Below, in pieces: positions 33,192-34,054 of a stretch of 64,000 nt of DNA. The translations under genes and the position numbers were made by a program. Every line of letters begins with the position of its first letter. The first letter of the stretch is position 1. Under the pieces are notes generated by a model that was given only the letters and a program-made list of their open reading frames with translations, made no database searches and was not told the origin of the DNA. The stretch spans positions 45,012,001 through 45,076,000 of the forward strand of contig OX638151.1 in NCBI GenBank assembly GCA_951804945.1, given 5' to 3'. This DNA comes from Podarcis cretensis (Eukaryota).

Positions 33192-34054
33192 TAGGGCTTG
33201 GCGATATCTGGTTTTCCATATCATAATATATCAGCAGCTAAACATTGCAATATACTGATATATCACAATGACTGAAAAAAGGAGTAAGGAGAAAATAAGG
33301 TGGGGAGGAAGAAGCAGCCGAGATACATTGTCCAGCCTTTCAGTATTGGCCCTGCAGTAGCCAGGCAGCCCCACCGTGCACACACAGTACACAACCCTGT
33401 CCCTGACTCTCCAGTGCAGGTTTCCAGCACCCCTCAGCAGCCAACCAGTCCTCTGCAGCCAGCCACACAGATGACCAGCGAAACCATGTGCAGGCTCTGC
33501 TCCTTACCTTGCTGTATCTGCCCTTCCTTTGTTCAGGAGGCAGCTGCGCCAAGTCACGTGGCTCAGCTGCAACTCCCCACGGCACCCATCCACGTGACCG
33601 TGCCCGGCCCTGGCTGCTCAGAGAGGCAAGATCCATGCACCCGAACAAGGAATTCCAGGGCACTGTTGGCCTCCCAGGGGCTGTGCCCCCTAAGTTGCCA
33701 GCCCACATGAAAGACTATCCCTTGCTGCTTGCATCGCCACTGGCAACCACCCACCAGAGCACCAGCCCCCGCCCCCATGCAAAGCACTGGAGTGCAGCAG
33801 CCACCCCACAGCATGTGGAGGTGATGAAGAGAAGCTGGCACTGCAGGACATGGAGATGCCTCTGTGGCCCCGTGTGAGGAGGAAGAGAGGGAGGAAGCAG
33901 CTCGCTTGATTGGCTGGAGAAGGACGTGAAGGTGCGGGCAGGCAGGCAAGCCCCACCCACAATATACCGCCTAGCACAGAAATCAAGAAATCGGCATCAC
34001 AATCTGACCCTCATACCCATCCTGGACAACGTATCAATACATCACCCAGCCCTA
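33192..34054. mobile_element. Non-autonomous hAT element, long form (863 bp), with GC-rich cargo
   Basis: TIRs TAGGGCTTGGCGATAT / ACATCACCCAGCCCTA; perfect 8-bp TSD TTAGTGGT (33184-33191, 34055-34062); ~90-bp arms homologous to 10195-10485. Confidence 0.9.

Follow-up and report, generated by a model that had tools for sequence, protein, structure and literature searches.

A lizard hAT element that probably carries the decayed first exons of two unlinked genes

The element at positions 33192-34054 of the window (the whole analyzed stretch of 64,000 nucleotides) is a non-autonomous hAT transposon. Very probably, it holds the decayed first exons of two unlinked genes, acquired through two successive template switches during repair and moved by hAT transposition after each of them, and it is unlikely to have a function. 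Specifically, cargo from two loci, one on contig C6 and the other on C1, is combined in one element on C3 (C-numbers denote contigs of the searched genome, which comprises 1.5 Gb in 51 contigs, and L-numbers denote individual loci). The element is a multicopy Pack-hAT, which is a known kind; what is new is the serial capture from two genes and the high copy number. The initial annotation had proposed one or two captured, CpG-decayed 5′ ends of CpG-island genes, and two such sources were indeed found.

Features of the element at 33192-34054 and of its short relative in the same window
Feature	Positions	Strand	Match or remark
MITE of 291 bp without cargo, from the common subfamily of this hAT family	10195..10485	-	Target-site duplication 7/8
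Target-site duplication, left, 8 bp	33184..33191		Same letters as 34055-34062
Left arm and TIR	33192..33283	-	Homology with the 3′ end of hAT elements that encode transposase
Linker and decayed internal TIR (33320-33340)	33284..33340		Match to L004 1400-1548
GC-rich module	33341..33435		Common only to sibling L002
Subfamily module; 33465-33502 is antisense to the first codons of a TASK-type KCNK gene (likely KCNK15)	33436..33502	-	Alignment to L146 and subfamily profile
Captured segment of non-coding exon 1 (ACOT/BAAT-family gene) with the two E-boxes and the donor-like site	33502..33628	+	Source C1 83388741-83388859
Decayed antisense KCNK 5′ UTR and upstream CpG island, with deletions; GC box inside	33629..33882	-	Profile and direct score
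Subfamily module with CCAAT box	33883..33957		Module alignment among siblings
Right arm and TIR	33958..34054	-	15 other genome places match
Target-site duplication, right	34055..34062		8/8 with left copy

The element measures 863 bp, ends in TIRs of the 16-bp type and is flanked by a target-site duplication (TSD) that agrees at eight of eight positions. In this regard it is like the hAT MITEs, the Ac/Ds-type non-autonomous derivatives with short TIRs and an 8-bp TSD, and its arms are common to elements that encode zf-BED and Dimer_Tnp_hAT domains. Unlike ordinary hAT MITEs, whose interior is deleted transposase DNA, its interior is host gene DNA. The cargo is GC-rich and depleted of CpG, as had been claimed (GC 0.60, CpG o/e 0.26). 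The claim that both arms match the 291-bp relative applies well to the left arm (76% over 92 bp), but the right arm is weaker (local score 42 vs 96). Likewise, that relative shares the arms of the element but is not its direct empty parent, because other members match more of each end: L004 1400-1548, in a short element with TIRs at both ends, matches the first 149-152 bp or so at 82%, and L100 and L107 match the last 140 bp. The internal TIR is intact in the sibling L002. Genome-wide searches found no source for 33341-33435 or for 33883-33957, such that about 170 bp of the interior are without one.

A genome-wide search with the left arm gave 1268 first-look candidates, 40 of which were scored. 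Most of the 29 other best matches examined are MITEs of 250-400 bp like that at 10195-10485, or are longer because of nested repeats (as judged by eye), and two, L022 and L040, have long GC-rich interiors. An 8/8 TSD is also found in the family members L022, L030, L048 and L160. Among 30 loci fetched from 69 Dimer_Tnp_hAT matches, six have the left arm 0.5-1.0 kb downstream of the dimerization domain and in terminal orientation. Thus, the family belongs to the hAT superfamily, and the 'left' arm is the 3′ end of the transposon. The right arm is similar to that of the 291-bp sibling, and the sibling's arm resembles the 5′ end of elements that encode transposase. One of the related loci, L245, is a derivative of 1059 bp that has the two TIRs, a remnant of hAT sequence and a TSD of 7/8. 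Another, L241 3948-5951 (C13 51393948-51395951), has an open frame of 668 amino acids with zf-BED and hAT dimerization domains (Pfam) and a family arm on its 3′ side. This frame is a candidate for the transposase source or for a domesticated copy; no 5′ TIR was found within 4.2 kb upstream of it, nor any complete autonomous partner among the five loci that were extended. We reject the possibility that the interior is transposase DNA. The initial annotation had named a match solely to the internal DNA of an autonomous hAT as the outcome that would speak against gene capture; against five transposase-bearing hAT loci only the arm matched, and gene sources were found.

The genome-wide search with the cargo yielded a single arm-free match, at C1 83388747-83388851 (77% over 105 bp, E 1.9e-12). 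The corresponding piece of the element, about 125 bp in sense orientation, is identical to this source in 94 of 113 aligned columns. The source locus is a CpG island (o/e 0.81), and no match to the family arms below E 0.5 lies within 60 kb of it. The splice of its first exon is seen in one contig (depth 5.9) of run X9, a presumed RNA run from a related organism, which joins L050 8636-8858 to 7483-7724; two further minus-strand introns of the same gene are joined in four of four runs. The next exon encodes a Pfam Bile_Hydr_Trans domain (E 1.5e-43), its best PDB matches are ACOT2 and ACOT4, and the donor in use of exon 1 lies about 100 bp past the captured piece. Positions 33502-33628 thus derive from the non-coding exon 1 of a gene of the ACOT/BAAT family. 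Eleven source CpGs fall within the piece, of which five are kept and four now read TG/CA, with zero changes of the reverse kind. In L160, a member with an 8/8 TSD and cargo of the KCNK type described below, a 27-bp BLAST match to the ACOT/BAAT island region (1447-1473) may be due to chance or may be a second trace of this capture.

The second source was reached by way of relatives of the element: L005, searched without its nested repeat, and then L094 led to C6 23316101-23316731, which is a CpG island (GC 0.78, o/e about 1) without arms. This island is the intact first exon of a TASK-type two-pore potassium channel gene (PDB matches KCNK9 and KCNK3, E about 1e-35), and a second-exon frame of 313 amino acids lies downstream. 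Two other TASK exons are present in the genome, on C3 and C7, and the one on C7 has KCNK9-type sequence. The TASK channels form a set of three members, such that the gene on C6 is likely, by elimination, KCNK15.

Direct alignment to this source exceeds shuffled controls in 24 of the 31 tested loci, distributed over 13 contigs, and fails in the other seven; the count of 31 leaves out the chance pattern hits L164, L172, L174 and L176 as well as duplicate fetches of one place. In all 24, what aligns is the antisense of the first 15-25 KCNK codons together with as much as about 500 bp of upstream DNA. The copies have TG, CA or TA at 349 of the 709 source CpGs that are aligned, as opposed to 15 changes of the reverse kind. 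Because the piece includes coding DNA that is common to the paralogues, the direction of copying is from gene to transposon. A 20-base pattern gives 22 hits in the genome versus none for its reversed control, and these are the source, 17 elements (six used to derive the pattern and 11 new) and four chance hits. Copy numbers are lower bounds. Five members, namely L151, L160, L170, L178 and the element in the window, have TSDs of 7/8 or 8/8 that are all different, and TSDs of other members are worse or missing.

The element at 33192-34054 belongs to this KCNK subfamily. Its two pieces that flank the ACOT/BAAT insert, one of them 33465-33502, score only 38 and 46.5 against the KCNK source, with shuffle maxima of 40.5 and 44. 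By contrast, a profile of 11 other members, built without this element, L002 or the KCNK source, gives 92 bits for the element, 76 for the source and 23.5 for L002, versus no more than 2.1 bits for 200 shuffles and no more than 2.8 bits for GC-rich elements and CpG islands other than these. Aligned as a whole, the element reaches a score of 66 with the source, and shuffles reach 39.5 at most; decay has affected 29 of the 57 CpGs, and there is one change of the reverse kind. The link thus rests on the profile and the whole-element score, the pairwise pieces being weak. The KCNK-derived part on the right is clearest at 33702-33752 and 33817-33882, and its left limit is uncertain (33610-33665).

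Given those pairwise scores, one might suppose that only the ACOT/BAAT exon was captured, and that the remainder is GC-rich DNA internal to the family whose likeness to KCNK stems from shared modules or composition. Indeed, modules without KCNK ancestry contribute to the 92-bit profile score. We nevertheless consider a single capture quite improbable. The whole-element score and its one-sided CpG decay stand against it, the pieces occur in collinear order, other islands and GC-rich elements do not exceed the 2.8 bits given above, and a tree of 21 rows groups the element with the KCNK source, L094, L005 and L140 (99/100). Within that group the element and L002 form a clade (99/97), although the tree is rough, with two of 18 branches starred, 15 of 18 open and a bootstrap that is not settled.

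In the two-gene version, the ACOT/BAAT piece begins where the KCNK copy reaches the antisense start codon. The same KCNK-to-ACOT junction is present in L002 on C7. In that copy, 52 bp of the ACOT/BAAT piece are missing, E-box 1 among them, and both ends are cut short, neither arms nor a TSD having been found. Evidence for transposition after the second capture is limited to the TSD of the element in the window and to the three different contigs involved. This arrangement also bears on the direction of the ACOT/BAAT transfer. The piece is non-coding, so protein conservation fixes no age for it, and a CpG-rich ancestral element that remained unmethylated at a promoter would produce the same CpG asymmetry; hence one could imagine that an inserted copy of the element supplied the gene with its first exon. 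Such an exaptation is hardly credible, since the gene locus is flanked on neither side by an arm or by DNA of KCNK origin, the piece splits a KCNK-derived stretch that the 17 pattern-hit siblings retain, and it is found in only two of the members examined. A retrocopy or segmental duplication is rejected as well: homology ends inside exon 1, no second exon is joined, and the flanks are unrelated.

With both exons read as copies made from genes into a transposon, the following history can be proposed. The arms derive from a hAT element, as their position in transposase-bearing loci indicates. An ancestor acquired a copy of about 550 bp of the TASK-type KCNK island; the copy is evident in the alignments, and a mechanism for it can be suggested. 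The resulting chimera transposed to at least two dozen places, as its different target duplications attest. One descendant, probably at a later time, gained some 125 bp of the ACOT/BAAT-like first exon within its KCNK piece, at the position of the antisense start codon, and this two-gene version reached at least two chromosomes. Copies that reside away from islands have lost CpGs and decay, presumably as a result of methylation.

The likely route of capture is gap repair, or fork stalling, with template switching onto the open DNA of CpG islands, which short imperfect homologies may have helped. Between the two sources, the junctions show homologies of six of seven and eight of nine bases, which are reached by 3.3% and by 0/449 random positions, respectively. 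The junctions were picked by eye, so these figures are optimistic, and the right junction is uncertain. The template might instead have been the 5′ end of an ACOT/BAAT transcript, used in RNA-templated repair, because the captured piece lies wholly within exon 1 and its start at L050 8859 is a single base away from where the spliced contig ends (8858). Contigs cannot reveal a transcript start, however, and there is only one of them; furthermore, the KCNK piece is antisense and extends about 500 bp upstream of the start codon, and two other captures, in L022 and in a PGAM5-like element (both described below), include sequence of intron 1, which indicates a DNA template. We therefore regard an RNA template as unlikely and DNA as the probable one. 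No empty site was found in runs X19 and X23, and the element is present in both of these DNA runs. A joint of 33278 to 34033 was considered as an empty site and set aside, having a side of only 22 bases and coming probably from another copy.

The initial annotation had also read promoter signals into the cargo. The motifs are all present: two E-boxes (33553-33560 and 33591-33598), a donor-like site on the minus strand (33503-33511), a GC box (33765-33775) and a CCAAT box (33909-33913). As evidence of a captured promoter they mostly fail, since only E-box 1 and the donor-like site come from the ACOT/BAAT source. When the cargo is shuffled 2000 times with its dinucleotides preserved, 0.05% of the shuffles contain two 8-bp E-boxes and 3% the donor 7-mer, whereas the GC box (34%) and the CCAAT box (69%) occur at chance level. 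E-box 1 is unchanged relative to the source, E-box 2 is missing from both the source and the sibling L002, and the source has a site that corresponds to the donor-like one, which however lies antisense to the ACOT/BAAT-like gene. The CCAAT box is missing in L094, L095 and L005, the three siblings with a true match at that place.

The retention of E-box 1 and the rarity of two E-boxes in shuffled cargo would suit a copy that works as a promoter or enhancer in its new place and is kept for its E-boxes, GC box and CCAAT box. This is very improbable, given that CpG o/e has fallen to 0.26 from the 0.81 seen at the source and that a second organism does not preserve the motifs. Specifically, DNA runs of both organism C and organism E contain the element, and the copy in organism E has two substitutions in E-box 1, a 2-bp deletion in the GC box and a 59-bp deletion at 33838-33896. 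Changes in organism E affect 17 of 691 bases inside the element and 30 of 1945 outside (Fisher p 0.13), such that the element changes no more slowly than its flanks and gives no sign of constraint. No contigs over 33392-34210 were found in runs X4 and X14 (assembled contigs of presumed RNA), which is neutral with respect to expression. The copy in the window is probably a dead passenger, and a function today is likely absent.

Captures of this kind have been described in animals before. Tan et al. (2021; PMC8277862) report 370 animal Pack-TIRs in 100 genomes, of which 208 are hAT and four are multicopy, the latter with three to five copies where numbers are given and with one parental locus each. 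Among them is Pack-hAT-N8_XT of the western clawed frog, which carries the CAPSL 5′ UTR. The element in the window is like this and other multicopy animal Pack-TIRs in being a non-autonomous hAT with a host 5′ UTR between its arms and a transposon-free source on another chromosome, and also in its distinct TSDs, GC-rich cargo and junction microhomology (PMC8277862). It has more than 100 bp of non-transposon host DNA between its ends (about 125 bp of ACOT/BAAT plus the KCNK pieces), its parental copies on C1 and C6 are found and are not flanked by transposons, and for the KCNK cargo five distinct TSDs of 7/8 or better followed capture. Unlike the multicopy cases set out in that survey, there are at least 24 copies here, and a second capture is nested in the first. 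The survey concludes that gene capture by TIR transposons is mostly single-copy, local and independent of transposition, and its lizard row lists zero Pack-TIRs and zero hAT consensus elements (PMC8277862). The present element, with 77-83% identity and a mosaic interior, would not pass the filters of the survey (90% identity, unique best hit, 80-120% length), although these are detection cut-offs rather than a definition. We found no literature on squamate gene-capturing hATs or on vertebrate Pack-TIRs with two genes, and the supplementary table of PMC8277862 could hold a multi-source case.

The closer parallel is with plants. Pack-MULEs and other Pack-TYPE elements, including Pack-hATs, are described as copying GC-rich genes with a link to open chromatin, as carrying cargo from multiple loci and as amplifying after capture (PMC5861414, PMC8903248), and rice alone has about 3000 Pack-MULEs according to these papers. 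The lizard elements are like plant Pack-MULEs in their GC-rich gene cargo, in the several loci per element and in amplification after capture (PMC5861414, PMC8903248). They are unlike them in having a vertebrate host and cargo that is CpG-decayed, is either non-coding or antisense, and gave no sign of a chimeric frame or, in contigs of presumed RNA, of expression. The family thus shows a plant-like mode in a vertebrate, in that it took cargo from other chromosomes, spread to dozens of sites and acquired a further piece within the captured one; such multi-gene patchworks are well known in plants and seldom reported in animals. Since sources and junctions are known, many independent events can now serve to test by what means and from which places TIR elements acquire host cargo, be it open CpG-island chromatin, the help of microhomology, or a template of DNA or RNA.

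Two other captures were identified. L022 1501-2468 (C1 137308680-137309647) is a 968-bp element with the same TIR family and an 8/8 TSD. It carries 274 bp that match a CpG island on C9 at 79% and run from the 5′ UTR through the start codon to some 35 bp past a likely donor; in this cargo 17 of 27 CpGs are decayed, with two changes of the reverse kind. No Pfam family exceeded its cut-off in 109 of 129 minus-strand frames scanned over 30 kb at the C9 locus; the first residues of its gene presumably fit the peroxisomal PTS2 pattern. L070 on C13 looks like a cargo-free relative of L022. Two CpG-rich partial duplicates of the C9 island, L062 and L063, lie 27 kb apart on C8 (69280412 and 69307634) without family arms, and L063 adjoins pieces of another small repeat.

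The other capture belongs to a second hAT family in the window, whose member at 10677-11476 (800 bp, TSD 8/8; 197 candidates genome-wide) carries a PGAM5-like first exon and the start of intron 1. Of 20 such loci checked, 19 have arms, and one, at C16 about 33047205-33047781, is an arm-free CpG island with an intact first exon. We take this exon to be that of PGAM5 by recognition, Pfam having given no match. The earlier suggestion that this family also picked up a gene 5′ end accordingly agrees with an arm-free CpG-island source. Short matches to the PGAM5-like element cluster on C2 at 125.8-127.5 Mb.

The initial annotation went further and proposed a general Pack-hAT system. In its favor are four CpG-island 5′-end sources, but two GC-rich subfamilies are without a source, and only GC-rich interiors were used as queries. 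All four identified sources are CpG-island gene 5′ ends, which, for queries of this kind, suggests a bias for gene 5′ ends. No source was found for the L040-type interior (149 candidates with 40 scored, and 39 other places examined) or for the L109- and L112-type interiors (60 and 222 candidates with 40 of each scored, and most of the distinct places examined). Two CpG-rich, arm-free matches were considered as sources of these interiors and dismissed, their CpGs having come from inserted SINEs. L040, L109 and L112 represent two further subfamilies with GC-rich interiors and the same TIRs, and the L112 type has internal inverted segments. Whether the lizard hAT MITEs amount to a vertebrate Pack-MULE system, in which several families serially copy, stack and spread CpG-island first exons (KCNK15-like, ACOT/BAAT-like, unnamed and PGAM5-like) to tens or hundreds of sites, is in our estimate evenly balanced. 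If they do, much of the 'GC-rich hAT interior' in repeat libraries would consist of fossils of promoters once open in the germline.

Elsewhere in the data, the flank of L023 contains, roughly 700-1100 bases past the arm, an intronless stretch that by eye we take to resemble a phosphoglycerate kinase retrocopy. The window also holds an LTR retroelement at 641-6081 with long minus-strand frames and two identical 300-bp terminal repeats, whose identity points to a very recent insertion.
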